DNA of 64,000 nucleotides from a virus. Positions within the stretch are counted from its first letter, which is position 1, and every line of letters begins with the position of its first letter. This document shows positions 1,907-32,926 of the stretch, one piece after another. The stretch lies in IMG/VR virus record IMGVR_UViG_3300023504_000004, positions 16,857 through 80,856 of that record; one strand, 5' to 3'. Made by a program: the position numbers and the translations under genes. The notes under the pieces are model-generated. The model did no database searches, was not told the DNA's origin, and worked only from the letters and a program-made list of their open reading frames with translations.

Positions 1907-3550
1907 ATGGTAAATATGTTTACAGATAACAAAGATTTCTACCCAACACCACAAAATCTTATAGATAAAATGCTTGATGGTTTGGATTGGAAAATGATAC
2001 ATACGGTTCTTGAACCATCAGCAGGTAAGGGAAATATTGTTGAAGCATTAACGAAAAAGGAAGATTTTAATAACAGATGGTACACAACAATTAAGTTAAA
2101 TATTGACTGTATAGAGAATGATATAAATTTACGAGCAGTATTAAAGGAAAAGAATTTCAGAGTTGTACATGATGATTTTTTGACATACGACACAATGAAG
2201 GAATATGACTTAATCATTATGAATCCTCCGTTCTCAAATGGATGTAAACATCTGTTAAAAGCATTGGAAATGCAACAGAGAAATGGCGGTGCTGTTATTT
2301 GCCTACTTAATGCAGAAACATTAAAAAATGAATGCAACAATGAAAGAGTAATGCTGAATAGAATGTTAGAAGAATACAATGCAGACATTCAATATATTCA
2401 AGATGCTTTCACGGACGCAGAGAGAAAAACAAGTGTTGAAATTGCATTGATAAAAGTAAAACTTCCAGAAGTCCACAGAGAATCATTCATATTTGATAAC
2501 TTAGAGAAAGCGAAAGAACATAGAGAGTATACATATAATGCGGAGAATACGCAGGTCGCAGAAAATGATTTTCTAATGGTAATTGTTGAACAATATAAAA
2601 CGGAAGTCGAAGCTGGTATAAGACTTATCAAAGAGTATTATGCAATGTCACCACATATTCTATATCAGTTTGGCAAAGACAAAAAAACAGGAGAAACAAT
2701 ACAAACTGGTGGATGCGTATTAAGTCTTAGCATTGGGAAAAATAGTGCATCGGTAAATGAATACATAAGAGAAATTCGTGGTAAATATTGGTCGGCATTA
2801 TTTAAAAATCCAAAGTTTATTGGACAGCTTACTAATAATTTGCAAAGAGAATATTACAGTAAGGTGGAGGAATTAAAAGATTATGAGTTCTCATTGCATA
2901 ATATCTATGAATTGAAGATTGATATGAGTAAAAAGGTTATTAAGGGAATTGAAGATACTATTGTTTCACTCTTTGAAGAACTTAGCAACAAATATTCATA
3001 TTATGATGAGTGTTCAAAAAACATTCATTACTTTAATGGATGGAAAACAAATAAAGCATGGATTATAAATAAAAAGGTAATCATTCCATTAAGAGGTTGG
3101 AAAGACTTGGAATATTCATGGGGTGGATTTAAGCCAACGAATTATGATGTTGTAAGCAAATTAAGAGATATAGAAAAATGTTTCAACTATCTCGATGGCG
3201 GAATGACAGAAGCAGTTGACTTAGATCAGTCATTACAGTTTGCAGAAGAATATGGTGAGTCAAAAGACATTATACTGAAGTATTTTAATGTAACCTTTTA
3301 CAAGAAGGGAACTTGTCATATTACATTCACAAATGATGAACTGTTAAAGAAATTTAATATCTTTGGAGCACAGCATAAAGGTTGGCTACCACCTTCATAT
3401 GGTAAGAAAAAATACAATGATATGTCAGCAGAAGAAAAGGCAGTTGTAAATGAATTTGAAGGCGAAGCTGAATATAACAAGGTAATGTGTAATACAAGTT
3501 ATTATCTTGCAGATACAAATTCAATGTTAATGCTGAATATGGCAGAATAG
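1907..3550 (+). CDS. SAM-dependent N6-adenine DNA methyltransferase (gamma-class order: motif I then NPPF) with a ~300-aa C-terminal extension
   Basis: Motif I-like 'LEPSAGKGNIV' followed by catalytic motif IV 'IIMNPPF'. SD 'aaaggaaatggtaaat' precedes the ATG. No adjacent restriction endonuclease gene. Confidence 0.75.
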   Translation: MVNMFTDNKDFYPTPQNLIDKMLDGLDWKMIHTVLEPSAGKGNIVEALTKKEDFNNRWYTTIKLNIDCIENDINLRAVLKEKNFRVVHDDFLTYDTMKEYDLIIMNPPFSNGCKHLLKALEMQQRNGGAVICLLNAETLKNECNNERVMLNRMLEEYNADIQYIQDAFTDAERKTSVEIALIKVKLPEVHRESFIFDNLEKAKEHREYTYNAENTQVAENDFLMVIVEQYKTEVEAGIRLIKEYYAMSPHILYQFGKDKKTGETIQTGGCVLSLSIGKNSASVNEYIREIRGKYWSALFKNPKFIGQLTNNLQREYYSKVEELKDYEFSLHNIYELKIDMSKKVIKGIEDTIVSLFEELSNKYSYYDECSKNIHYFNGWKTNKAWIINKKVIIPLRGWKDLEYSWGGFKPTNYDVVSKLRDIEKCFNYLDGGMTEAVDLDQSLQFAEEYGESKDIILKYFNVTFYKKGTCHITFTNDELLKKFNIFGAQHKGWLPPSYGKKKYNDMSAEEKAVVNEFEGEAEYNKVMCNTSYYLADTNSMLMLNMAE

Positions 3551-3767
3551 GAGCGTGATACTATGGCATATTATAGTAGTCCACGAAAATATGAGAACGA
3601 AACAGGTAAAAGATTTACAGATATATGTCCGTGTATTCATATAATCGGTAATATTAGAGGAATGGTTAAATTAGGCTTTTGGAATAAAGATAGTGATAAG
3701 GCAAGACACGGAAACTGGATTTATCAGCAGCCATTCAAATAAAATTGTAATTTCAGGAGGTAAAAAT

Positions 3768-4211
3768 ATGCGAGTTAATGAAGTAAAAGAAATGAAAGAA
3801 GTTGTTGTTAAAACAGAATACATAGCAGAGGACGGAGCTGTATTTACAGATAAAGAGCAGTGTGAAAAATGGGAGAGATCCTTTAAAGGTACACTTGCAA
3901 AAGCAATGAAGCAAATTCCACATGTCGAAACATGCGGGGAAAAAGCATATATCCCATGTGGCAATTATGATGAAAATGTATGGGTTTTAAAGCCAAGAAA
4001 TTTCGAAGACATTAAGGTAATTAATGCATATACGGAGCATTGTTGTGGCTGCAATGCAGATCTTACACAGGACGACATCGGAACGCTGCTGGCTTTAAAT
4101 TTTGGTTATGATTATGATTGGTGCGATGTTTTAAAGATCGAAAAATATCTTGCAGAGATTAAGAAAGCGTATAATGAATTCGAAATCAAAATCGACGAAA
4201 ACAACAAGTAA
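3768..4211 (+). CDS. Hypothetical protein
   Basis: Internal ATG of the listed ORF 3693-4211, chosen because 'tttcaggagg' lies 8 nt upstream (MRVNEVKEMK...). Confidence 0.55.
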   Translation: MRVNEVKEMKEVVVKTEYIAEDGAVFTDKEQCEKWERSFKGTLAKAMKQIPHVETCGEKAYIPCGNYDENVWVLKPRNFEDIKVINAYTEHCCGCNADLTQDDIGTLLALNFGYDYDWCDVLKIEKYLAEIKKAYNEFEIKIDENNK

Positions 4212-4323
4212 TACAGAGAATAATAAGGCAGATGCAGAAATGTATCTGTCTTATTTATTAGGAAGTGTGTGAGCTAATGAAAAGTTACGAAGATACAATT
4301 CTAAATTATCAGGAGGTAAATAG

Positions 4324-4644
4324 ATGGAAAGAAATTGGGTTATTACATGCAGCAATTCAGAAAACGGATACGTGGAATTTAAAAAATTCTATGGAACCGA
4401 AAGTGAAATGAAAAAGGAACTGTTTAAACTCGCCAAGAAAAGCAATATCATTCAGGATGCAATCGAAAACAATGATGATGAAGAATATACAAGCGAGGAT
4501 ATTATTGAGGATTTAGTAAGCGATTGCTATTTCGACTCTGATAACAATACATACTCAATCATGGTTCATGATGATAACAATGAAATCGACGAAGTTTATA
4601 CGGCAATCGAATTAGAGAAAATTAAAGAAACATGGAAAGGATAA
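4324..4644 (+). CDS. Hypothetical acidic protein
   Basis: ORF with SD 'caggaggtaaatag' upstream. Confidence 0.55.
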   Translation: MERNWVITCSNSENGYVEFKKFYGTESEMKKELFKLAKKSNIIQDAIENNDDEEYTSEDIIEDLVSDCYFDSDNNTYSIMVHDDNNEIDEVYTAIELEKIKETWKG

Positions 4645-4650
4645 CAGAAG

Positions 4651-4863
4651 ATGAAAATTCGGCAAAATGAAGTTTTGTGGTTGTCTAATAAAGGAAATGT
4701 AGCTGTGACATATTCACAATTTGATCTTGGCGAAAAATATAAAATATACCGAAAAGTAAATTACGGAGATAATTCCGTATGGGAATATAATAATACTTTT
4801 GGAACCCAAGGCGAAGCAATAAGTTATGCAAAACAAATTTTAGACAGGGAGGTCGAAAGATAA
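4651..4863 (+). CDS. Hypothetical protein
   Basis: ORF packed tightly against the previous stop. SD 'aaaggataacagaag'. Confidence 0.5.
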   Translation: MKIRQNEVLWLSNKGNVAVTYSQFDLGEKYKIYRKVNYGDNSVWEYNNTFGTQGEAISYAKQILDREVER

Positions 4864-4865
4864 TT

Positions 4866-5501
4866 ATGGGAATCATTTATGATAAAAATGCAAAAGAAAA
4901 AGAACTGTACTCGGCATACGGTCTCACCGTATATGGAAAAGAAAATAGATACGATTCGATTTGGTCACCGGATGTGAAATCCGTATTTATTACGTTACGG
5001 ATTTCAGACGGAGAGAAAGACCTGGTCGATGAACATCTTGGGAATAATTGCATCTTCCCAGGCACGTTTAAATCAACAATTGATAATTTCTTATGGTGGA
5101 TCAGTAACGACAAACCAGATGATTATGATGTTAAGTCACATATCCTTAAATGTCTGTGTAGTAGCAACTGTTTGTTTAATACTCAGATCGAGAACAGAAA
5201 ATGGAAAGAAGAACAGCAGAGAAAAAAAGAAGAGAGATGTAGATTAATTGAGAAAGAACGAGAAGTGAAGATATACGCTATCAAGGAATATTGTAAAAAG
5301 AACCATCTTGTTTTTGCTCGAAACTGGAAGGGGGTATATTTGTTCGAGGTTGATAATGAACGTGCAAAAGAAACGCTTGAAAGTGCTAATTCTGATCGAC
5401 TTGACAGTTATATAAGCTATATGAAAAAACACAGTGTTGTAGACGCAAGACTGGTTGCAGATGGAAGTTTAGACAAAATTTACGAATATATTCGGAGGTA
5501 A
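4866..5501 (+). CDS. Hypothetical protein
   Basis: 211-aa ORF. Start overlaps the previous stop, suggesting translational coupling. Confidence 0.55.
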   Translation: MGIIYDKNAKEKELYSAYGLTVYGKENRYDSIWSPDVKSVFITLRISDGEKDLVDEHLGNNCIFPGTFKSTIDNFLWWISNDKPDDYDVKSHILKCLCSSNCLFNTQIENRKWKEEQQRKKEERCRLIEKEREVKIYAIKEYCKKNHLVFARNWKGVYLFEVDNERAKETLESANSDRLDSYISYMKKHSVVDARLVADGSLDKIYEYIRR

Positions 5502-5507
5502 ATACAT

Positions 5508-6122
5508 ATGGCAGAAATTAGAATTAATACAACCGGTGATGGATGTTGGTGGTTATATGGAAGTTCGGAAGCTTGGAAAGATTATGTCGGCTGCGAGGAT
5601 TTTAATGAGCAGGTAGTCCTGTATGGAAACAGAGATTACAGTGGAATTAAAGAGGCATCTTGGTATCAGAAGGCAAAAGAAATCATTGACAATATCGATA
5701 TTTACGATGACTATCCAGAGGATATGTCTGAAGAAAATAAAGAAGAGATCGGAAAGATTTTGTTAAGCTCATGCAATGATGTTCTGGTGGAAGTGTTACG
5801 GATTTTATATCCTGATGACGAGTTTAAAACCGGCACTATTCGCGGCTATTCTCAGGGAGATTGGGAGTATTACATCGTTAAAGGAGACGTTGATGTAGAG
5901 CGGCTTGAAGCGTATTACTTCGGCAATGTTGTAGATATCTTTGTGAAAGACAACGAAGAAGAATATGGTGATGTTATGACCTGTGAAGAATTGTGGGACG
6001 CCGAAAGAGAAGGATATGAAAAGGCATTTAGAAAGCGATACGAAATTCCTGAAGATGAAGAGTTGAAGATCTATGTGGCTGATGGATATGTACAAACACT
6101 GAATTGGAAAATGGTGAGTTAG
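5508..6122 (+). CDS. Hypothetical acidic protein
   Basis: 204-aa ORF with SD 'cggaggtaaatacat'. Strongly acidic, as anti-restriction-like early proteins often are, but no diagnostic motif. Confidence 0.55.
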   Translation: MAEIRINTTGDGCWWLYGSSEAWKDYVGCEDFNEQVVLYGNRDYSGIKEASWYQKAKEIIDNIDIYDDYPEDMSEENKEEIGKILLSSCNDVLVEVLRILYPDDEFKTGTIRGYSQGDWEYYIVKGDVDVERLEAYYFGNVVDIFVKDNEEEYGDVMTCEELWDAEREGYEKAFRKRYEIPEDEELKIYVADGYVQTLNWKMVS

Positions 6123-10647: not shown

Positions 10648-10818
10648 ATGGAAAAAGAATTAAAGGCAGAAGTGACTATTTATTTACAGGGACGCGATGG
10701 CGAAACAGATGAAGATCTTAAGAGTCGATTCAAGGATATTCTATATGATGCTTTGAAAAATTTGGCAGATCATCATTTTGATTACTATATTTGGGAAACA
10801 GAAATCAGAGAAAATTAA
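10648..10818 (+). CDS. Hypothetical small protein
   Basis: Internal ATG of ORF 10633-10818 after 'tgggaggaatgatt'. Starts 2 nt after the previous stop. Confidence 0.45.
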   Translation: MEKELKAEVTIYLQGRDGETDEDLKSRFKDILYDALKNLADHHFDYYIWETEIREN

Positions 10819-10852
10819 GCGTGATGAAAGCAAGGTTTCAGAGGGATATTAT

Positions 10853-11221
10853 ATGGGAAGAAATAGTTATGAGCGCTTAAAAAGTATTCAGAGATCACTT
10901 ATCGAATTAGGAAATAGTCTTGAAGAACAATATACATTGATGCAAAAGGAATGTTTGGACGAGATCGTAGATGATATGAGAGAACATGCAACTCAACATA
11001 GTGAAATGAGCGCATTGTACAACAAGATTGCAAACGATTCTAACATGCGAATGACATGGATTCGCAATAAACTGCCATGGTATATCACATATTTTTTCAA
11101 AATTAGCAGTACAGAAATAATTTTAAAGGACACCAGTATTTTTATTGGTGTTAATTTTGGAAAATCTAAGAAGGCAAATTGTTACATTGAAATTACACCA
11201 TTCGATATTGGATGGAGATAA
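10853..11221 (+). CDS. Hypothetical protein
   Basis: Internal ATG of ORF 10778-11221, preceded by 'tttcagagggatattat'. Confidence 0.5.
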   Translation: MGRNSYERLKSIQRSLIELGNSLEEQYTLMQKECLDEIVDDMREHATQHSEMSALYNKIANDSNMRMTWIRNKLPWYITYFFKISSTEIILKDTSIFIGVNFGKSKKANCYIEITPFDIGWR

Positions 11222-11246
11222 AACTTTGCTTTCAGGAGGTGATTTT

Positions 11247-11429
11247 ATGGAGCCGAAAATTGTAGGAATCATGTTTGAACATAGTGACAAAACAGTAAGC
11301 TATTGGGACGGATTTAGCCTTACAGATGATGATCAAGAAACAATAGGAGCAGTGTTATCAAAGTATAATACTGAAGGTTATTCAGTGAGAGGAACATTGA
11401 ATGATGTATTAAATGAATTTATAAAATAA
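11247..11429 (+). CDS. Hypothetical small protein
   Basis: Internal ATG of ORF 11145-11429, preceded by 'ctttcaggaggtgatttt'. Confidence 0.5.
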   Translation: MEPKIVGIMFEHSDKTVSYWDGFSLTDDDQETIGAVLSKYNTEGYSVRGTLNDVLNEFIK

Positions 11430-11448
11430 AGTTTTCAGAGAGAAATAT

Positions 11449-11697
11449 ATGAATAAAAAAGAATTAATGCATAACATCATACTCTCGTTAGGACAAAATT
11501 GGTATAAAACGGGAATAGACGAGGATGGTAAAGCATTTGCATGGACCAATAGCGAAAAGGCAACCAATGCGTTGACAGAAATCCTTTGCGATATTGGTTG
11601 CATAGAAGGGTATGATGAACATCCCACAATACCAGTTTATTATAAATATGTTATTGTTACGAACAATCATTGGCGGGCAGTATTTAGAGAAGTATAG
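11449..11697 (+). CDS. Hypothetical protein
   Basis: ORF preceded by 'ttttcagagagaaatat'. Confidence 0.5.
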   Translation: MNKKELMHNIILSLGQNWYKTGIDEDGKAFAWTNSEKATNALTEILCDIGCIEGYDEHPTIPVYYKYVIVTNNHWRAVFREV

Positions 11698-16798: not shown

Positions 16799-17134
16799 AT
16801 GATAAAAGTATCAAGCAAATCAGGGAAATCAATAATTGCAGAAGCAATTCAGAAATATAATGGAGCAGTAATTTATTCGTATTATGACGAACTATTACCG
16901 TTTGAAAATGGCTATCATGTCAATTCCGGCAAATATTCTGTTGATGAGTTTTGTGAGGGAATAATGATCGATATTAAAGAAAAGGTAGAAGGAAATGAAG
17001 GGTCGCCATTAAATATGGTAATCATTTATACAAATCTTTCAGATATCTCGGAAATCGATACTTTATACGCATATGCCGAAAGACTTGAAGAGGTTGAAAA
17101 ATTGGTTGGTACGGTAGTAGTAATGACACAATAA
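16799..17134 (+). CDS. Hypothetical protein
   Basis: ORF preceded by 'tttcataaggagaaataaat'. Confidence 0.5.
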   Translation: MIKVSSKSGKSIIAEAIQKYNGAVIYSYYDELLPFENGYHVNSGKYSVDEFCEGIMIDIKEKVEGNEGSPLNMVIIYTNLSDISEIDTLYAYAERLEEVEKLVGTVVVMTQ

Positions 17135-21677: not shown

Positions 21678-23174
21678 ATGAAGAGAAAAGTTATTGAAGA
21701 AGCTGTGTCGGTAGAGTCTTACTTAAGCGATATCTCAAACGAAACGATTAGCGACAATCAGGACGTACAGAGAAATTTCTGTTCGACAGAAGAATTTGAG
21801 GATGGAATTATTTTAACCGTACTTACTGGTGATTATCTTCCTTCCTTAATTATCGGAGAAATTAATTCCGGAGGAATTACGAGAAAATATCTTATCGACG
21901 GAATGCAGAGAACATCGGCACTGAGAAGATTTAAAAATGGCGCTCATAAAATTAGAAAGAAATGCGAAGACAGCGTTGTTGAATATCAGACGAAGAAGCT
22001 CGATAAAAACGGAGTTGTTGTTCGAGACGAGAATGGAGAGCCGGTTTGGGAGATTGCAACATTCGATGTTAAGGGAAAGGGATACGAAGATCTTCCTGAA
22101 GAATTGAAAAGAGAGTTTGATAAATTCCAGGTAAAGCTTGCAACATTAACAGGTTACAAAACAATGTCGGAAGTCAGCAAAAAGATTAGACAGTTCAATA
22201 TGAATACAGGAATGAATACCAATCAGAAGAGTTTTACTTACCTTGATATGTACGCCAGAAAGGTAAAAGCAATTGGATCTAAAGGCTTTTTCAAGGAATC
22301 AACTGCACTTAAGAGCAAACAGAATGATAAAGGAGCTTGCGAGAGCATGATTCTCAGGTCGATTATGACTGTATTCCACTTAGATTCTTATAAGAAAAAT
22401 GCAAAAGACGTAGCTATTTTTCTCAATACAAATGCAAGTGACGCTGAGTTTAACTTATTTCAGCATCTTGCAGATAGTCTGTGCGATGTAGTCGGCGATG
22501 CATATAAGGAATTGTTCACTCAGAAAAATGTCCCGATTTGGTTTCCAGCATATAATCATTTCTTAGAGTTAGGCATTGAGGAAAAAGAATTCAGAAGATT
22601 TCTTGATGCTTTTAAAGAGAATTTACATACGAGCACGGTTAAATGTGATTACGAACAGAAAGATCTTAACGGAGATATTACTTGGGACAAACTCGATGGA
22701 TTGCGTGGAACAACTGACAATGGTCTTGTAAAGGCAAAAATCGATACGCTCTGCCAGTTAATTGACGATTTTTTTGGAATTAAAGCTGAAGAAAAAACCG
22801 AAATCGAGGCGGTAGAAGAAGAGAATAATAATGAAGTAGTGGAAACAAATGAAGTAGAGATTGATCCGGTATTAAAGTTTGCACAGGACAACGTAAGAGA
22901 AACTATTGAACCAGAAGACATTGCATTATATAAGGATTTTTTGAGCGATTTTGTAAAAGATGATTCACATATTTATGAAGCAGGAGAAGAAACGGTAATT
23001 GCTTTAATGGCATATGCATCTGATATTGAAAAAGATACAGAATTCAGCGAATGGATAGACAGAGAAAATTCCAAAAATAATACATATAGTCCAAGTCACA
23101 AAACAAACTTTACATATTTAAAACGTGATTTTGATGAGTTTTTAGAGAAGAGAAATGGAGGTAAAGCAGCATGA
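21678..23174 (+). CDS. DUF262 / ParB-like nuclease-domain protein (GmrSD N-terminal-domain-like), 498 aa
   Basis: Motif 'YLIDGMQRTSALRRF' resembles the DGQQR signature of DUF262/ParB-like NTPase domains. SD 'aaagggagattaatc'. Confidence 0.45.
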   Translation: MKRKVIEEAVSVESYLSDISNETISDNQDVQRNFCSTEEFEDGIILTVLTGDYLPSLIIGEINSGGITRKYLIDGMQRTSALRRFKNGAHKIRKKCEDSVVEYQTKKLDKNGVVVRDENGEPVWEIATFDVKGKGYEDLPEELKREFDKFQVKLATLTGYKTMSEVSKKIRQFNMNTGMNTNQKSFTYLDMYARKVKAIGSKGFFKESTALKSKQNDKGACESMILRSIMTVFHLDSYKKNAKDVAIFLNTNASDAEFNLFQHLADSLCDVVGDAYKELFTQKNVPIWFPAYNHFLELGIEEKEFRRFLDAFKENLHTSTVKCDYEQKDLNGDITWDKLDGLRGTTDNGLVKAKIDTLCQLIDDFFGIKAEEKTEIEAVEEENNNEVVETNEVEIDPVLKFAQDNVRETIEPEDIALYKDFLSDFVKDDSHIYEAGEETVIALMAYASDIEKDTEFSEWIDRENSKNNTYSPSHKTNFTYLKRDFDEFLEKRNGGKAA

Positions 23175-25292: not shown

Positions 25293-25310
25293 AAGAATGG
25301 GAGAATGACA

Positions 25311-27374
25311 ATGGAAGATTTTATGAAATTCAAAAAGGCATTACAGGATCGTTTTTCTAAAATGCAGAAGGTTGCAGACCATTTATACGAGATGGATGTA
25401 GATAAGGACATTTTATGGAATACATATTTAGACAGTTTTCCTGCAGGAACAAACAAAATGTTCCGCCAGAGAAGAGAATATGATTGTAGCTGTTGCAGAC
25501 AGTTTATTAAAAATATTGGTGCGGTCATCGCAATTAAGGATGGCAGGATTTATACGCTCTGGGAAGAAGTTACTGATGATGCGGTATATAGACCGGTGTG
25601 TGAGGCGCTTAACACATATGTAAAAGCGCAGAAGGTTAAGGATATTTATATCAGTAAGTTTTCTAAAATCGGAACTGATCATAACTTTGAAGACATTGAC
25701 GGGAAAGCACATCGTTGGGATCACTTTTTCTTAGAGCTTCCAAGCAAATATGTGAATTGTTCCTGTGACTCGAATGAAGAAATTAAAGGACAGTACAGAG
25801 ATACGAAAAATGTATTTAAGAGATCACTCGACGAAATTACCATGGATGCAGTTGATACGGTTCTGGAGTTGATCAATTCAAACACTCTTTACAAGGGCGC
25901 AGAGTGGAAAGCTGCCTTAACAGAGTTTAAGAAATACAAAAAAGAATATGCAAATCTTTCTACTGACAACGAAAAGGATCTGTATGTGTGGGAAAAATCA
26001 GCAACAGCAGGTATGGCAGTTGGTAGAATTAGAAATCATTCTATTGGTGTTCTGCTAACTAATATCAGCGAAGATATGGATCTTGATCTCGCAGTTAAAA
26101 AGTATGAGCAGATTGTTGCGCCAGCGAATTACAAACGTCCAAGGGCGATTTTTACAAAGAAAATGCTTGAAAACGCAAAGAAGACAATTACAGAACTTGG
26201 ATACATGGATTCTTTACAGCGTCGCTTTGCAACATTAAGAGATATCACAGTAAACAATGTTTTGTTTTCCAACAAATCTGCAGTTCGAAAAATGGTTGGG
26301 GCAGATGATATTTTTGGAGAGATGGAAAAGGATGTTGCAATTAGCCCAAAGAGATTTTCTAAAGTAGAAGAGATTTCTGCGCAGGATTTTATCGACAAGG
26401 TACTTCCGACCGCAAAAGAAATCGAAGCCTTCGTAGAGAATAAACACGAGAAGAATTTTGTATCCTTGATTGCTCCTGCGAATCCGGATGCTAAGTCAAT
26501 GTTTAAATGGAACAACGGCCTGAGCTGGGCATATACCGGAAATATTACGGATTCAGATATGAAACAGAATGTAAAGGCAGCCGGTGGAAACGTAGACGGC
26601 GTTCTGAGATTTTCTATTCAGTGGAATGATGATCAGAACGATAATAGCGACTTAGATGCTCATTGTATTGAACCGGATAAAAATGAAATTTATTTTGGTC
26701 ATTGTAGAAAACCCGCAGTATCTCGTATGGGTGGCCAGCTTGATGTTGATATTACTCAACCGATGGGACAGAGACCAGGACAGCCAGCAGTAGAAAATAT
26801 TACCTGGACAGATATGTCTAAGATGAAGCCCGGGGTATATCGGTTTTTTGTAAATCAATACCTTGCAAGAGGTAGTAAAGGCTTTAAGGCAGAGATTGAA
26901 TTTAACGGAGAAATCCATGCTTTTGAATACAACAAGCCTGTGTCTGGTAATGTCGTTGTCGCAGAAGTTACGCTTGACAATGGTGGAACTTTCTCCATTA
27001 AAGATATTTTAAATGGATCGTCTTCGGTATCAAGCAGATCAATTTGGGGAGTTCAAACAAATCAGTTTGTTCCGGTATCTGTAATTAGTTACAGCCCAAA
27101 TTATTTTGATGAGCAGAAAGGAATTGGGCATAAACATCTTATGTTTTTCCTTAAAGATTGTATAAATGGTGAAGAACCGAATGGCTGGTATAATGAATTT
27201 CTAAAAAATGATTTAGAAAAACATAAGAGAGTATTTGAGGCTCTTGGAGCAAAATGCCATGTGGCAAGTGTGGATGATCAGCTTTCTGGAATCGGTTTTT
27301 CTATGACAAAGAGAGCGGATCTTGTAGTAAAAGTTAAAGGCGCGACAGAACGTATCATGAAGATTAAATTTTAA
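25311..27374 (+). CDS. Large orphan protein (~687 aa), function unknown
   Basis: ORF with SD 'aatgggagaatgaca'. N-terminal 'YDCSCCRQF' Cys cluster and a Gly/Asn-rich C-terminal half. No P-loop, no glycyl-radical motif (RVxGY), no rSAM motif. Confidence 0.6.
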   Translation: MEDFMKFKKALQDRFSKMQKVADHLYEMDVDKDILWNTYLDSFPAGTNKMFRQRREYDCSCCRQFIKNIGAVIAIKDGRIYTLWEEVTDDAVYRPVCEALNTYVKAQKVKDIYISKFSKIGTDHNFEDIDGKAHRWDHFFLELPSKYVNCSCDSNEEIKGQYRDTKNVFKRSLDEITMDAVDTVLELINSNTLYKGAEWKAALTEFKKYKKEYANLSTDNEKDLYVWEKSATAGMAVGRIRNHSIGVLLTNISEDMDLDLAVKKYEQIVAPANYKRPRAIFTKKMLENAKKTITELGYMDSLQRRFATLRDITVNNVLFSNKSAVRKMVGADDIFGEMEKDVAISPKRFSKVEEISAQDFIDKVLPTAKEIEAFVENKHEKNFVSLIAPANPDAKSMFKWNNGLSWAYTGNITDSDMKQNVKAAGGNVDGVLRFSIQWNDDQNDNSDLDAHCIEPDKNEIYFGHCRKPAVSRMGGQLDVDITQPMGQRPGQPAVENITWTDMSKMKPGVYRFFVNQYLARGSKGFKAEIEFNGEIHAFEYNKPVSGNVVVAEVTLDNGGTFSIKDILNGSSSVSSRSIWGVQTNQFVPVSVISYSPNYFDEQKGIGHKHLMFFLKDCINGEEPNGWYNEFLKNDLEKHKRVFEALGAKCHVASVDDQLSGIGFSMTKRADLVVKVKGATERIMKIKF

Positions 27375-27392
27375 AGGACAAAGGAGAATTAT

Positions 27393-27779
27393 ATGACAGC
27401 AGCAGAATTATTTATCGAGGCAACAAAGAAAAACTATCAGTTCCCGTTCAGAGGAATGATCAACGTCATTGATTTATGGGAGCTTTCCGTTCAGAATCTG
27501 GATCTGGTCTTCAAGAGTTTGAACGCAGATTACAAAAAATCCGAGGAGGAAAGCCTTCTTTCCGCTCAGACAAAAGAGAGTGAAGAGCTTTCCGAAAAGA
27601 TTGAGATTGTAAAGTATATCGTCAATGAGAAACTGGCCGAAAAGAAAGCGAAAGAGGACGCAAAGAAAAATAGAGAAATGAAGCAGCGTCTTCTCGAAAT
27701 CAAGGCAAAGAGACAGGATGCAGCATTAGAAGGTTTATCTGATGCAGAACTGGATAAAATGATTCAGGCAATGGAGTAA
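27393..27779 (+). CDS. Hypothetical coiled-coil (K/E-rich) protein
   Basis: ORF with SD 'aaaggagaattat'. Confidence 0.5.
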   Translation: MTAAELFIEATKKNYQFPFRGMINVIDLWELSVQNLDLVFKSLNADYKKSEEESLLSAQTKESEELSEKIEIVKYIVNEKLAEKKAKEDAKKNREMKQRLLEIKAKRQDAALEGLSDAELDKMIQAME

Positions 27780-27849: not shown

Positions 27850-28578
27850 ATGAAAAGACAGATCCGAAGAGGTGTTTTTGAAACAAATTCTTCCAGTCAG
27901 CATTCGCTTTGCATCATGAAAAACAACAGTCATTATACCCCAGACGAAATCCTTAAGGAATTTTGTTTGTGGGACGACAAAGAGACTGGTGAAGAGGATT
28001 GTATATGGCATGTTGATGATGATGATCTGGAATTCGGAAGAAGTCCATTTAGAGCGTTAGGAACTTTTTATGACAAGTGGTTGTATGCTTGTGCCTCATT
28101 AGTTTTGGAATATAACGATGATAAGTATAAAGAGCTTGAAGCACTTGCATTAAAATATGTTCCTGGTTTAAAAAAGATTGTAATGCCAATGATTTTAGAC
28201 TCTGTTCCTAATAAAGATTTTCCTGGAAATAAAAATAGTGACTATGTACAGAAATATGGAAAAACAGAAGATGAGTTCAATGAATGGATTGACCAAAAAG
28301 AGGTAGCTTGGGGAATAGATACAATTGAATATTGGGAAAACGACAGAGGGTATTTTGTTTTTGAAAGACCATATGTGGGATATGTGGATGAAGATATGCT
28401 TAGTGGTTTTCTTAAAAGAGAAAAAGTATCGTTAGAAGAATACCTGACGAATAAAAAGTATATTGTTATTCAAGATGGAGATGAAACATGTTACTGGTCT
28501 GATATGAAAAATTTAGGATTAGTCAATATGGATGTTATTGATCATGAATATCCAGTAAACAATGGAACGGAGGATTAA
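27850..28578 (+). CDS. Hypothetical protein, paralog A with N-terminal 'MKRQIRRGVFETNSSSQHSL'
   Basis: Internal ATG of ORF 27796-28578 after 'tttcgaggtgagaaaatc'. The first ~20 aa are nearly identical to the next gene. Confidence 0.55.
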   Translation: MKRQIRRGVFETNSSSQHSLCIMKNNSHYTPDEILKEFCLWDDKETGEEDCIWHVDDDDLEFGRSPFRALGTFYDKWLYACASLVLEYNDDKYKELEALALKYVPGLKKIVMPMILDSVPNKDFPGNKNSDYVQKYGKTEDEFNEWIDQKEVAWGIDTIEYWENDRGYFVFERPYVGYVDEDMLSGFLKREKVSLEEYLTNKKYIVIQDGDETCYWSDMKNLGLVNMDVIDHEYPVNNGTED

Positions 28579-28580
28579 AT

Positions 28581-28952
28581 ATGAAAAGACAAATTAGAAA
28601 AGGCGTATTCGAAACAAATTCATCTAGTGTCCATGCATTGGCAATGTGTACAGAGAGTGAGTTCGACCGATGGGAAAATGGAGAATTATTATTCTGGGAA
28701 CATAAGAATAAATTCGGGACTAGAGAAGAACTTATTGAGGAATTAAAAAAGTACACTGGTTGGAATGGAAAACTTTGGTATCGCGATACTGACTGGGATG
28801 ATGAGGATCGAGTTGCGGAAATCTTTGAGGACGAAAATATTAAAACATGCGATCAATTTTTTGATAATGAATGGTATGAAACGTATTCAGAAAGATACAC
28901 AACACCAGGCGGTGAGACCATTGTAGCTTTCGGCTATTACGGTCACGATTAA
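28581..28952 (+). CDS. Hypothetical protein, paralog B with N-terminal 'MKRQIRKGVFETNSSSVHAL'
   Basis: ORF starting 2 nt after the previous stop, with SD 'acggaggattaaat'. Shares the N-terminal motif with 27850-28578. Confidence 0.55.
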   Translation: MKRQIRKGVFETNSSSVHALAMCTESEFDRWENGELLFWEHKNKFGTREELIEELKKYTGWNGKLWYRDTDWDDEDRVAEIFEDENIKTCDQFFDNEWYETYSERYTTPGGETIVAFGYYGHD

Positions 28953-28970
28953 GCAAAGGAGAATGTAGAA

Positions 28971-29861
28971 ATGGAATTATTAGGAAGATATAAAAACGGC
29001 AATTTCCGAGTTGTCATTCTTGATGACGGCACAAAAATTAGAGAAACAAACGACGATGAGTTTGTGCCGGATTTTGCAGAAAATATGGATATAAAAATCT
29101 GTAACGTATGCGACGTTCTTTGTCCCTTTTGTCATGAGGGAAGCACAAAAAACGGAAAACTCGGAGATATCTTAAATGAGAAGTTTATTGATACTCTTCA
29201 CCCATATCAAGAGGTTGCAATCGGTGGAGGCGACGTAACAAGTCATCCTGATTTGATTCCATTTCTGCAGAAACTCAAAGAGAAAAAAGTTATTGCAAAT
29301 ATCACAGTTAATCAGATTCACTTTGAGAGAAAACAGGAGCTTATTAAGAAACTTGTTGATGAAAAACTTATCTATGGTCTTGGCGTTTCTCTCGTAAATC
29401 CAACGGAACACTTCCTTGATCTTATCAAACAATACCCTAATGCGGTAATTCATGTAATCAACGGAATTTTATCCGAATCTGATGTGAAAAAATTAGAGAA
29501 TAACGATTTGAAAATGCTTATTCTTGGATATAAGCATTTGAGAAGAGGCAACGAGTATTTCGAGGTCGATCAGACAGAAATCGAGAACAAGCAGCATTGG
29601 CTGTATGAGAATTTAGAAAGCCTTGTTGATAGGTTCAAAGTAGTAAGCTTTGACAATCTCGCAATTGAGCAGTTGCAAGTTAAACGACTATTGACCGATG
29701 AAGAATGGAACGAATTTTATATGGGCGATGATTCCGAATTTACGTATTATATCGATATGGTGGAAAGAAAATTTGCAAAGAATTCGACTGCCCCGATGGA
29801 TCAGAGATATGATTTGTTAAATTCGACCGATGATATGTTTAATAAAATCAGAAAGCGTTGA
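28971..29861 (+). CDS. Radical SAM enzyme (CxxxCxxC), 296 aa
   Basis: 'ICNVCDVLCPFCHEG' carries the canonical CX3CX2C motif. A later 'AIGGGDVTSHPD' is a GGE-like SAM-binding motif. SD 'aaaggagaatgtagaa'. Confidence 0.65.
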   Translation: MELLGRYKNGNFRVVILDDGTKIRETNDDEFVPDFAENMDIKICNVCDVLCPFCHEGSTKNGKLGDILNEKFIDTLHPYQEVAIGGGDVTSHPDLIPFLQKLKEKKVIANITVNQIHFERKQELIKKLVDEKLIYGLGVSLVNPTEHFLDLIKQYPNAVIHVINGILSESDVKKLENNDLKMLILGYKHLRRGNEYFEVDQTEIENKQHWLYENLESLVDRFKVVSFDNLAIEQLQVKRLLTDEEWNEFYMGDDSEFTYYIDMVERKFAKNSTAPMDQRYDLLNSTDDMFNKIRKR

Positions 29862-29895
29862 AACCGATATTTCAAGGTAACATATGAGGTAACAT

Positions 29896-30090
29896 ATGAG
29901 AGAACAGAAATTATATATTTGTGATTATTGCGGTACGCAGTACAAAGAAAAAGTCAGGTGTGCTGAATGCGAAAAGTCACATATTGGAATTACAAAAATC
30001 AGAGATATAAACTATCATGCATGTGGGAAATACCCTGATCGTGTAGAGATAGTTTTCGATGATGGAAGTTTTGCATATTACAAGAGGTAA
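29896..30090 (+). CDS. Zinc-ribbon protein (64 aa)
   Basis: Two CxxC pairs (CDYCGTQ...CAECEKSH) plus H..C. Sits between the two radical SAM genes. Confidence 0.5.
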   Translation: MREQKLYICDYCGTQYKEKVRCAECEKSHIGITKIRDINYHACGKYPDRVEIVFDDGSFAYYKR

Positions 30091-30114
30091 AATGCACGTT
30101 TCAAAAGGAGAAAA

Positions 30115-30762
30115 ATGGATAAATATATAAGCGTGATCACAAACTTTGGATGCCATTATTCGTGTCCATATTGTATCGTGAAGAACAATGATTTACATAT
30201 TCCGAAGAGTACAGTAGAAGGATTAGATTCATTAATTTCGGAAGCTGAAAGGGCCGGTTGTAACTGGATCTCGTTATCCGGTGGTGGCGATCCATTGTGG
30301 GAGTATCAGAACCACAAAGATTGGTACGGAAAATTTTTTGATATCGCAACAGATTATAAGATCGAACTACATACAAGTATTCCAAACGTAAAAACATTCC
30401 CATATTTCTTCTTCAATCGAGTTGTATATCACTTGCACAGTTATGATCAGTTGAAAACTATTAAGCGAGACGGCAACGAAATTGTTCGTGTAGTATTTGT
30501 CGTTACAGAGAATTTTACAGAAGGGTTAATTGATAAAATCGCAACATTTTGCCAGGAATCTTCTGAGATTGATGAGCTGAGTTTCCGGCAGATGGTTGAC
30601 GATCATTATCAAGACACTTATTACTGCCAGAAGTATCTGAGAGAAGGCCATCAGAAGCGTTGGTGGTACATCGAACAGTGTGATTATAATCTGTATTATT
30701 GCGAGAATAAAGTATATACAGAATATAAAAACATCGGGGTCGATCAAGAAAAAGTAATTTAA
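30115..30762 (+). CDS. Radical SAM enzyme (CxxxCxxC), 215 aa, organic-radical-activase/QueE-like size
   Basis: 'NFGCHYSCPYCIV' carries CX3CX2C very near the N-terminus. 'LSGGGDPL' is GGE-like. SD 'tttcaaaaggagaaaa'. Confidence 0.65.
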   Translation: MDKYISVITNFGCHYSCPYCIVKNNDLHIPKSTVEGLDSLISEAERAGCNWISLSGGGDPLWEYQNHKDWYGKFFDIATDYKIELHTSIPNVKTFPYFFFNRVVYHLHSYDQLKTIKRDGNEIVRVVFVVTENFTEGLIDKIATFCQESSEIDELSFRQMVDDHYQDTYYCQKYLREGHQKRWWYIEQCDYNLYYCENKVYTEYKNIGVDQEKVI

Positions 30763-32107: not shown

Positions 32108-32926
32108 ATGATAGGGAGGACTTTCGGGCTTCTAACAGTAAAAAGTGTATCTGAAAGGTCTACATCAAAACGTCTTATATATGTATGTGACTGTAAATGC
32201 GGCACAAAGGATGTAGAGGTGTCTGGCGATAAATTAAGAAGTGGGTGGACAAAAAGTTGTGGCTGTTTGGTGAAAAAAAGAGCGAGTGAAATTCATAAAA
32301 AAATTAATACATATGATATCACTGGTCCATATGGTATTGGAATATGTTCAAATAGTGACACAAAATTTTTCTTTGATCTGCAAGATTATGAAAAGATTAA
32401 AGATTATTGTTGGATGGAATTGAGGAATGGATATATAGCAACATCTTTGAATGATGGAAGATTTATATATTTACATCGATTAGTCATGAATGCAACAAGT
32501 GGACAAATTGTCGATCATGTGCAGCATAATCTTTATGATTGTAGAAAAGAAGAATTACGTATTGGAACACAAAGTAATAATATGATGAATTTATCTATGC
32601 GAATAGATAATACATCTGGAACCACTGGAGTTTGGTTGGATAAAAGGAACAATAATTGGGTCGCTGAAATTAAGGTAAACAAGGAGAAAATAAATTTGGG
32701 ATCTTTTGTTAATAAAAATGATGCTATAAAAGCGCGTAGAAATGCAGAAGAGAAATATTTTAACAATTGGTCATATAAAAATTCTACTGGTCTTTACAAT
32801 AATGAAAATTTGGAGGTCACAACGAAGTGTCCGTATTGTAACTACATTCCGGATTGTGATGAGTATACCTGCGATGGATGCGAAGTCTATGAAGATTTCT
32901 TGGATGATATAAATGATTTTTATTGA
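32108..32926 (+). CDS. HNH homing endonuclease with AP2-type DNA-binding domain
   Basis: 'IDHVQHN...R.ELR..T.S.N' HNH core, and 'TTGVWLDKRNNNWVAEIKVNKEKINLGSFVNKNDAIKARRNAEEKYF', an AP2-like domain typical of phage HNH endonucleases. Confidence 0.7.
   Translation: MIGRTFGLLTVKSVSERSTSKRLIYVCDCKCGTKDVEVSGDKLRSGWTKSCGCLVKKRASEIHKKINTYDITGPYGIGICSNSDTKFFFDLQDYEKIKDYCWMELRNGYIATSLNDGRFIYLHRLVMNATSGQIVDHVQHNLYDCRKEELRIGTQSNNMMNLSMRIDNTSGTTGVWLDKRNNNWVAEIKVNKEKINLGSFVNKNDAIKARRNAEEKYFNNWSYKNSTGLYNNENLEVTTKCPYCNYIPDCDEYTCDGCEVYEDFLDDINDFY

Follow-up and report, generated by a model that had tools for sequence, protein, structure and literature searches.

The 64,000-nucleotide stretch of viral DNA analysed here, hereafter the window (positions 16,857 to 80,856 of IMG/VR virus record IMGVR_UViG_3300023504_000004), contains between positions 27850 and 30762 five tightly packed open reading frames (ORFs) on the plus strand, named here genes A to E, and all five were confirmed where an original prediction, made without database searches, had placed them. 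Gene A (27850–28578, +) encodes a protein of 242 amino acids (aa) with KWLYACA, IQDGDE and IDHEYP motifs and an acidic body (isoelectric point (pI) 4.35), and gene B (28581–28952, +) encodes a 123-aa protein with a variable acidic and aromatic middle region and a conserved C-terminal ..TTPxGExVAFGYYGHD. Both proteins start with a FETNSSS-type segment, which we call the tag (27850–27915, +, MKRQIRRGVFETNSSSQHSLCI in A; 28581–28646, +, MKRQIRKGVFETNSSSVHALAM in B). They are followed by gene C (28971–29861, +), which encodes a single-cluster radical S-adenosylmethionine (SAM) protein of 296 aa with C47/C51/C54 and AIGGGD motifs that is a member of phrog_16999, and by two genes outside the conserved cassette described below: D (29896–30090, +; a 64-aa CxxC..CxxC protein) and E (30115–30762, +; a 215-aa radical-SAM-like protein of phrog_17662). 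The mechanically called ORF of gene A begins at TTG 27796; the ATG at 27850 is preceded by a GAGGTGA ribosome-binding site and agrees with the starts of all homologues. GAGG or GGAGG precedes the starts of A and B, and AG-rich sequence resembling a ribosome-binding site lies immediately 5' of C, D and E.

The similarity between A and B is confined to residues 1–22, where 17 of 22 residues are identical (BLASTP, E=2e-9 for a single comparison; E≥0.36 for the remainder), in agreement with the near-identical N-termini that had been pointed out in the original prediction. Both proteins carry R-x4-E-[TS]-N-S-S-S-x-H inside their first 20 residues. At nine of the 17 codons that specify identical tag residues the two genes differ synonymously, and the tag peptide has therefore been kept by purifying selection, rather than arising from recent duplication, gene conversion or an assembly artefact. 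That the shared segment might be a sequencing duplication or an assembly artefact was rejected on the basis of these codon differences and the presence of the motif at the head of thousands of other proteins. A profile built from the N-termini of A and B matched 3,798 clusters (50% identity) among 1.84 billion representatives, and in nearly all of the best 150 of these clusters the match fell at residues 1–32. The consensus spans 18 residues, M-K-x-Q-I-R-x-x-h-[FY]-E-[TS]-N-S-S-S-x-H, and the first ten residues of tagged proteins have a charge of about +3.5. Across 118 unique N-termini, R6, E11, N13, S14, S15 and H18 were present in 100% and S16 in 117, with variable positions at 5 (I/V), 10 (F/Y) and 12 (T/S). 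These data show the tag to be an invariant, strictly N-terminal linear segment under purifying selection.

A comparison of gene neighbourhoods across related phages, as the original prediction had proposed, was carried out with two sets of IMG/VR loci, and A- or B-type genes were found to be conserved together with C, and D and E were not. An IMG/VR locus search with the A sequence alone returned nothing, and an alignment of A homologues was needed, which gave 80 A-seeded loci that were then compared with the window proteins by BLAST. In about 78 of these 80 loci, A (58–79% identity), a B-like gene and C (61–81%) occurred together, and the flanking genes mostly differed. Seeding with C removes the bias towards A, and 77 of the 311 C loci in IMG/VR were fetched for this second set. 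A B-type gene lay 300–470 nt directly upstream of C in 75 of the 77, making it the most constant neighbour of C, and the arrangements were B-C (26 loci), A-B-C (21), T-B-C (19) and T-T-B-C (7), with genes of the A-type or the T3/T5 types as optional members.

The same association was seen in cellular genomes and in curated phages. The GTDB genome collection yielded 43 C loci, mostly from metagenome-assembled genomes of gut Firmicutes; the others include three isolates, Lachnospiraceae MD308, Eubacterium plexicaudatum ASF492 and Acetivibrio ethanolgignens, and Bacteroidota and Saccharibacteria bins; in the three isolate assemblies, the phage-like neighbours point to apparent prophages. A hidden Markov model of the N-terminal segment detected one to five tagged ORFs beside C in 36 of the 37 GTDB loci with both flanks, down to 41% identity in C. 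Among curated phages, C homologues (≥39% identity) and tagged proteins were found in the same 24 records, with none carrying one alone (15 Lak megaphage and nine Microcystis phage records). In Ma-LMM01 the order is gp130 (tagged, 166 aa), gp129 and gp128 (the radical-SAM protein), and in Lak-A2 the radical-SAM gene is followed by five tagged paralogues of 165, 226, 118, 186 and 101 aa, the largest number found with a single C. Taken together, these data show that the conserved unit is a two-component cassette, comprising the radical-SAM gene C and one to five genes for tagged proteins, which is co-inherited while its surroundings change, and that the phages carrying it have hosts in three phyla: Firmicutes, Bacteroidota (Lak) and Cyanobacteria. 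Deep-branching C homologues usually have one partner, most often of the core type described below, and the ancestral pair therefore seems, from the sequences compared, to have been a core client and the radical-SAM protein, with B and A added later.

The bodies of the tagged proteins were compared after removal of the first 24 residues, and fell into at least seven clusters: the B-type (97–138 aa, 856 homologues, with the conserved C-terminal ..TTPxGExVAFGxYG[YH]D), the A-type (about 225–280 aa), a core cluster (T3/T5, 145–200 aa), a T4-like type and three Lak singletons. A and B, described in the original prediction as a pair of paralogues, are indeed both tagged, although as two of at least seven body types they do not form a simple pair. 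Tagged proteins span 97–282 aa, and all bodies are acidic, with median pI values of 4.3–4.5. Profile-profile comparison (hhalign) of the tag-less bodies found no similarity (probability ≤4%), which, with the tag heading thousands of clusters, bears out the earlier view of a conserved segment on different bodies. The accompanying statement that A and B diverge completely after the tag goes too far: the bodies are unrelated at the level of profile-profile comparison, but by eye the A-type and the core type have a common motif order: FG, a K-x-x-Y helix, G-Y-V-D, then a hydrophobic strand with DGDE/GNDN/DNDN. The core type has the further invariant polar residues K56, S58, Y59, D117, H118 and D151; B-type proteins and several Lak paralogues have only the tag in common with it. 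Core proteins match phrog_28997 over their full length (E=5.8e-22), and this family also matches the N-terminal half of types 3 and 4, and A and B over the N-terminus only (E=4e-4 and 2.7e-3). A core-type profile matched 3,760 clusters in a second database.

No match was found for A or B in Pfam, NCBIfam or PADLOC, and Pfam searches with four other body types and ten longer tagged proteins gave nothing credible. AlphaFold2 models were obtained for A (predicted local distance difference test (pLDDT) 83.7, predicted template modelling score (pTM) 0.81) and for a core-type (T5) protein (pLDDT 87.6, pTM 0.85). Residues 1–15 and 1–13, respectively, fell below pLDDT 50, so that the tag is probably flexible, and the first β-strand begins at residues 16–17 in both models. 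Fold searches of the PDB with the modelled body types matched no known fold or catalytic fold, and PDB sequence searches with the core-type profile gave nothing significant; the clients are acidic proteins whose folds are apparently novel. Likenesses seen by eye to Toprim (E ... DxD), DEDD exonuclease (DxETTG), RNase-H-like, metallophosphoesterase and pyruvoyl (E-S-H) proteins were unsupported by the fold searches. A glycyl-radical reading of the C-terminal AFGYYG of B was likewise rejected, as the position that follows the first Gly is variable (Y/K/E/R/Q) and there is no Arg before it.

Several unusual forms of tagged genes and cassettes were also seen. Two proteins, P0366 (288 aa) and P0425 (395 aa), contain two copies of the tag each, the second being internal with its own Met before it, and look like two tandem paralogues called as one gene, via a lost stop codon or stop-codon recoding; such recoding is reportedly a feature of Lak-type phages. 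In loci L004–L007, which have A and C and lack a B-type gene, a T4-type tagged gene (8751–9299 in L004) is split into a 46-aa tag ORF and a 119-aa body ORF, and the same gene is intact at 182 aa in L079. The split form may be a pseudogene, a sequencing frameshift or a programmed frameshift. In five loci (L024, L025, L026, L038 and L048; about 10780–11500 in locus coordinates), a gene for an HNH endonuclease 41–43% identical to the product of the window HNH gene at 32108–32926 lies between the A-type and B-type genes, which suggests a homing endonuclease inserted within the cassette.

The sequence of C marks it as a bona fide member of the radical-SAM superfamily, scoring 30.6 bits against Pfam PF04055 (Radical_SAM; cutoff 29.5) and E=4.3e-45 against phrog_16999. 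C47-x3-C51-x2-C54 is invariant in 13 homologues, and since these are the only three invariant Cys residues, C has no auxiliary cluster. C also begins with a conserved extension of 40 aa and ends in a unique domain (SFDNLAIEQL..FYMGDDG..YIDMV). Pfam and NCBIfam searches gave no SPASM, Fer4 or PqqD/RRE match in C (RRE being the recognition element for ribosomally synthesised and post-translationally modified peptides (RiPPs)), and no PqqD/RRE match in its neighbours. NCBIfam scores were far under cutoff for NrdG2 (TIGR02495; 24.0 bits against 131) and MoaA (21 against 231), QueE was unmatched in NCBIfam and reached only E=0.55 in the PDB, and a PDB search with the C profile gave no specific or significant relative. 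Nor did PADLOC give a specific match for C. C homologues are 50% identical in Lak megaphages and 40% identical in Microcystis phages. A profile of the C-terminal domain (residues 209–289) had as its best PDB match the soluble domain of the phage T4 holin T (6pxe_T), a weak hit (E=0.006 over 81 aligned positions) that could reflect chance or an old shared domain.

D and E are distributed differently. The original prediction had described D as a zinc-ribbon protein, and it does contain two CxxC pairs; its zinc-ribbon matches are weak (E=0.013). No D homologue was found in the 80 A-seeded loci, and five loci gave weak matches about 6 kb from C, never adjoining it. E carries GCHYSCPYC and GGGDPL and matches phrog_17662 (E=1.5e-68), but scores only 19.1 bits against PF04055, below the same cutoff, and is radical-SAM-like by motif only, so that of the two radical-SAM enzymes originally described, C passes the family threshold and E does not. 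E scored 26.5 bits against NrdG2 (TIGR02495; cutoff 131), had no QueE family match in NCBIfam and nothing specific in Pfam, NCBIfam or PADLOC, and had no PDB relative by sequence. Listeria P70-like phages and the faecal phage MT835485 carry E but none of A, B and C, and the Lak and Microcystis phage records bearing the cassette gave no E match. E-like genes lie within 7–10 kb of the cassette, at variable positions, in 30 of 166 loci. In the A-seeded set, E appeared in only 10 of the 80 loci, again at variable positions. No constant partner of E was found; a gene 3' of E in some gut phages, with a 'GHRP' N-terminus that may be DUF1273/SLOG-like, has no counterpart in either the window or Listeria phage P70.

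In L090, L093, L124 and others (about 3700–6100 in locus coordinates), two more radical-SAM-like genes lie directly upstream of the tagged array, one for a 243–250-aa E-like protein about 30% identical to E and the other for a 326–337-aa protein with CPQHCQFC. The resulting order is [E-like][326-aa radical SAM][T5][T3][B][C], with three or four radical-SAM-type genes in one region.

The earlier judgement that neither an anaerobic ribonucleotide reductase activase (NrdG with NrdD) nor a QueE-type pathway fits this locus was upheld by the family scores given above and by the absence of partners in the window. Neither NrdD, NrdG nor the glycyl-radical motif (R-[IVT]-[CSA]-G-[YF]) was found in the 64 kb by ORF annotation, by tblastn with the NrdD and NrdG of a related phage or by a six-frame motif scan, and no QueC, QueD, FolE or TGT partner was present among the annotated window ORFs. 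A related prophage-like contig, L003 (11498–12586), contains a short 190-aa ORF resembling a C-terminal fragment of NrdD, with the glycyl-radical motif FRVCGYIG, followed by a 170-aa NrdG-type activase; these have no counterpart in the window.

The reading that we favour, tentatively and as something short of probable, is by analogy with anSME and the sulfatases: C would act on the tags of many client proteins, as one maturase with many clients, which in this window would be A and B. Radical-mediated modification of these proteins had been raised as a possibility in the original prediction, and for the shared segment it is plausible. The flexible basic N-terminal tail of each acidic client would dock into C, which would cleave SAM reductively, and the resulting 5'-deoxyadenosyl radical would abstract a hydrogen from an invariant tag residue, most likely one of Ser14–16. 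The post-translational change so produced (an oxidation, epimerisation or cross-link) would be needed for client activity. We favour this because arrays of paralogues adjoin a single enzyme, because the bodies have only the tag in common, because the basic tail is modelled with low confidence and has hydrophobic anchor residues (I5, V9, F10), and because C fits no small-molecule radical-SAM family. That the tag and C touch, that radical chemistry takes place on the tag and which modification would result are all inferred. A more specific proposal, which we consider unlikely, is that the tag is a portable 'modify-me' signal: a minimal radical-SAM enzyme free of auxiliary clusters would install a new modification on E-T-N-S-S-S-x-H and thereby activate polymorphic acidic effectors with novel folds, which phages infecting Firmicutes, Bacteroidota and Cyanobacteria would exchange as cassettes, for instance to take over the host or counter its defences; the clients in general could be effectors of either kind.

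A number of observations weigh against a maturase. C has the three SAM-cluster Cys residues only; it lacks an auxiliary cluster of the SPASM/twitch kind, no RiPP recognition element was detected in it, and auxiliary clusters are typical of radical-SAM enzymes that oxidise Ser or cross-link peptides. The invariant polar residues of the core type and the motif order of the A-type mean that the tag could belong to an ordinary active site, and since the first strand starts at residues 16–17 in both models, S16 and H18 would lie within the fold. The low pLDDT of the tag may come only from the shallow alignments (26–32 sequences). Finally, L003 and L073 carry A with no C within 8–10 kb.

Several of these points speak for the main rival, which we regard as rather less probable than not and which takes FETNSSS to be an intrinsic catalytic motif, the first strand and loop of an active site. 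The tagged proteins would then form a new superfamily of enzymes, probably dependent on a metal, in which E11, N13, S14–16 and H18 line the site together with core-type K56, S58/Y59, D117-H118 and D151. These enzymes and C would carry out successive steps on one common substrate other than a protein (a nucleotide, a nucleic acid or a small metabolite), leaving the tag unmodified by C. Such an arrangement would account for the invariant K, S, Y, D-H and D that the core type has besides the tag, for the retention of the core order (FG, KxxY helix, GYVDE, hhhh-DGDE) in the A-type, for the span of phrog_28997 over the whole core type and the N-terminal half of types 3 and 4, for the position of S16 and H18 in the first β-strand of both models and for the lack of auxiliary clusters in C; N-terminal catalytic motifs on strand 1 are also common in enzyme superfamilies, such as HAD proteins and metallophosphoesterases. 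It fits poorly with the B-type and several Lak paralogues, which resemble the core type in the tag only, and with the failure to match any known catalytic fold. Furthermore, a contiguous run of at least nine invariant residues, with R6 of the low-confidence tail among them, is more than is usually retained of a catalytic motif when the bodies are too diverged for similarity to be detected, and pathway enzymes seldom form arrays of up to five paralogues beside one partner. By analogy, the maturase and catalytic-motif readings would not be mutually exclusive, because the target of the sulfatase maturase is also a catalytic residue.

If the tag instead bound C and stayed chemically unchanged, the bodies would be exchangeable specificity or regulatory subunits that steer one radical-SAM catalytic subunit to different targets. 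The linkage and tag conservation would be explained as well by docking of this kind as by a maturase, the tail is basic, hydrophobically anchored (I5, V9, F10) and modelled with low confidence, and the conserved non-core N- and C-terminal regions of C could bind it; however, the invariance of the small polar residues N13 and S14–S16 fits chemistry better than docking alone, we know of no precedent for such an arrangement among radical-SAM enzymes, and we consider it improbable. Still less credible, and in our judgement very improbable, is that the tag is a virion/capsid-targeting (or secretion) signal with a protease site at V-F-E|T, functionally unrelated to the radical-SAM gene. The hydrophobic-x-Glu at residues 9–11 does recall the T4 prohead-type site L/I-x-E|, and the T4 internal proteins have a conserved N-terminal peptide on polymorphic tandem genes. 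Against this, conservation peaks at residues 11–18, past the putative V-F-E| site, and the identical tag is found in phages of Firmicutes, in Lak (a 541-kb megaphage) and in a cyanophage (162 kb), which are expected to differ in their head-assembly machinery. The near-obligate adjacency to C would be left unexplained, and the window cassette lies among replication and accessory genes, not structural ones. Equally remote is a five-gene module as originally described, in which A to E would cooperate, for instance in modifying nucleotides or DNA by a new route with two radical-SAM enzymes. All five genes are tightly packed and co-directional here, and some of the E-like genes found near the cassette are directly upstream of the array (L090, L093, L124), yet the proposal is largely refuted by distribution: D never adjoins C elsewhere, E stands without the cassette in the Listeria P70-like phages and MT835485, most loci have the cassette and lack E, and none of the adjacent genes is a partner from nucleotide metabolism.

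Among characterised systems, anSME/AtsB and the sulfatases offer the closest parallel to a maturase acting on tags, in that one radical-SAM enzyme would serve many paralogous clients, each with the same short motif bearing a target Ser/Cys near the N-terminus, a motif that the enzyme would recognise and that would later form part of the active site. The differences are considerable. anSME has a SPASM domain and two auxiliary clusters, whereas C has the SAM cluster alone; the sulfatase motif is C/S-x-P-x-R, and the tag is E-T-N-S-S-S-x-H; and sulfatases have one alkaline-phosphatase fold, whereas the clients described here have several bodies without a PDB relative. anSME modifies its clients, while in the phage cassette modification is a proposal from sequence. 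The glycyl-radical activases PflA and NrdG are likewise small single-cluster radical-SAM enzymes of about 250–300 aa encoded beside the protein on which they act, and NrdG2 is the weak best NCBIfam match of C. However, glycyl-radical systems have an R-V-x-G-[YF] motif in a C-terminal Gly loop, which is lacking from the clients and from the window, and the conserved segment here is N-terminal and Ser-rich.

RiPP precursors with a radical-SAM maturase also show tandem paralogues with a conserved N-terminal segment and a variable remainder beside a single radical-SAM gene. RiPP precursors are short, however, whereas the clients have 97–282 aa and the two modelled types (A and T5) fold at pLDDT 84–88; a RiPP maturase would also be expected to have an RRE (PqqD-like) domain in it or beside it, no RRE/PqqD or SPASM domain was found in C, and no protease or exporter gene is associated with the cassette. 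The T4 internal-protein loci likewise consist of tandem phage genes whose products start with a short conserved peptide and continue into unrelated bodies that exchange rapidly. By contrast, the tag is conserved across three host phyla and beyond a plausible cleavage site, and is tied to a radical-SAM gene. In PHROG, the families matched by core clients (phrog_28997) and by E (phrog_17662) are functionally unannotated, and that matched by C (phrog_16999) is annotated as 'Fe-S oxidoreductase'; these clusters contain no record of a tag common to the different body types or of an association of phrog_28997-like proteins with phrog_16999. Literature searches on the motif and on phage-encoded radical-SAM proteins found no relevant publication, and the main text of the Ma-LMM01 transcriptome paper makes no mention of gp128–130. 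The cassette is a widespread, undescribed system of a radical-SAM protein plus clients.

Only a small number of radical-SAM enzymes act on whole proteins, among them the glycyl-radical activases, anSME and QhpD, and each gave rise to a field of chemistry. The compact radical-SAM protein described here is tied, about as strongly as gene-neighbourhood evidence allows, to a family of about 3,800 clusters for which no Pfam domain, structural relative or publication was found. Were the tag modified, this would represent a new protein modification and a new recognition rule for radical-SAM enzymes without auxiliary clusters; were it a catalytic motif, it would define a new enzyme superfamily partnering radical-SAM chemistry. 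The system spans phages of gut Firmicutes, Lak megaphages and a cultivable cyanophage (Ma-LMM01, with Microcystis).

The window has a GC content of about 36% and all its genes on one strand. Its gene products include Pol III alpha, RecJ, RecD2, an RNA ligase and a sigma factor, and it is a replication/accessory region of a large phage, not a structural region. Megablast of the region against 50,697 phage genomes gave no nucleotide match. The B protein is 93% identical to an annotated protein of Clostridium sp. Marseille-P7770, and the host of the phage is therefore probably a gut clostridial bacterium, as judged from this similarity. Promoter and terminator scans of the region showed no excess over shuffled controls; the sole predicted terminator-like hairpin lies within E (30147–30168), and the hairpin count was not above that of shuffles.

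Other genes in the window were also noted. Upstream of A, positions 25305–27779 encode a 689-aa protein (phrog_1735, with one homologue carrying DUF8224) followed by a 128-aa protein (phrog_2018), a conserved pair that is also found near the cassette, at varying distance and in varying order, in L003, L046, L056, L058, L062, L070 and L087. The 498-aa product of 21678–23174 is a phage-encoded type-IV-restriction or defence-like protein: it matches the GmrSD N-terminal (DUF262-type) domain of Pfam at E=5e-6, a score below the cutoff, and NsnA of PADLOC at E=1.7e-10. Finally, positions 1907–3550 encode a 547-aa protein with an N6-adenine-methyltransferase-like N-terminus (MTS and Dam matches) and a DUF4942 domain (E=1.7e-34), which by these matches is probably a phage DNA methyltransferase.

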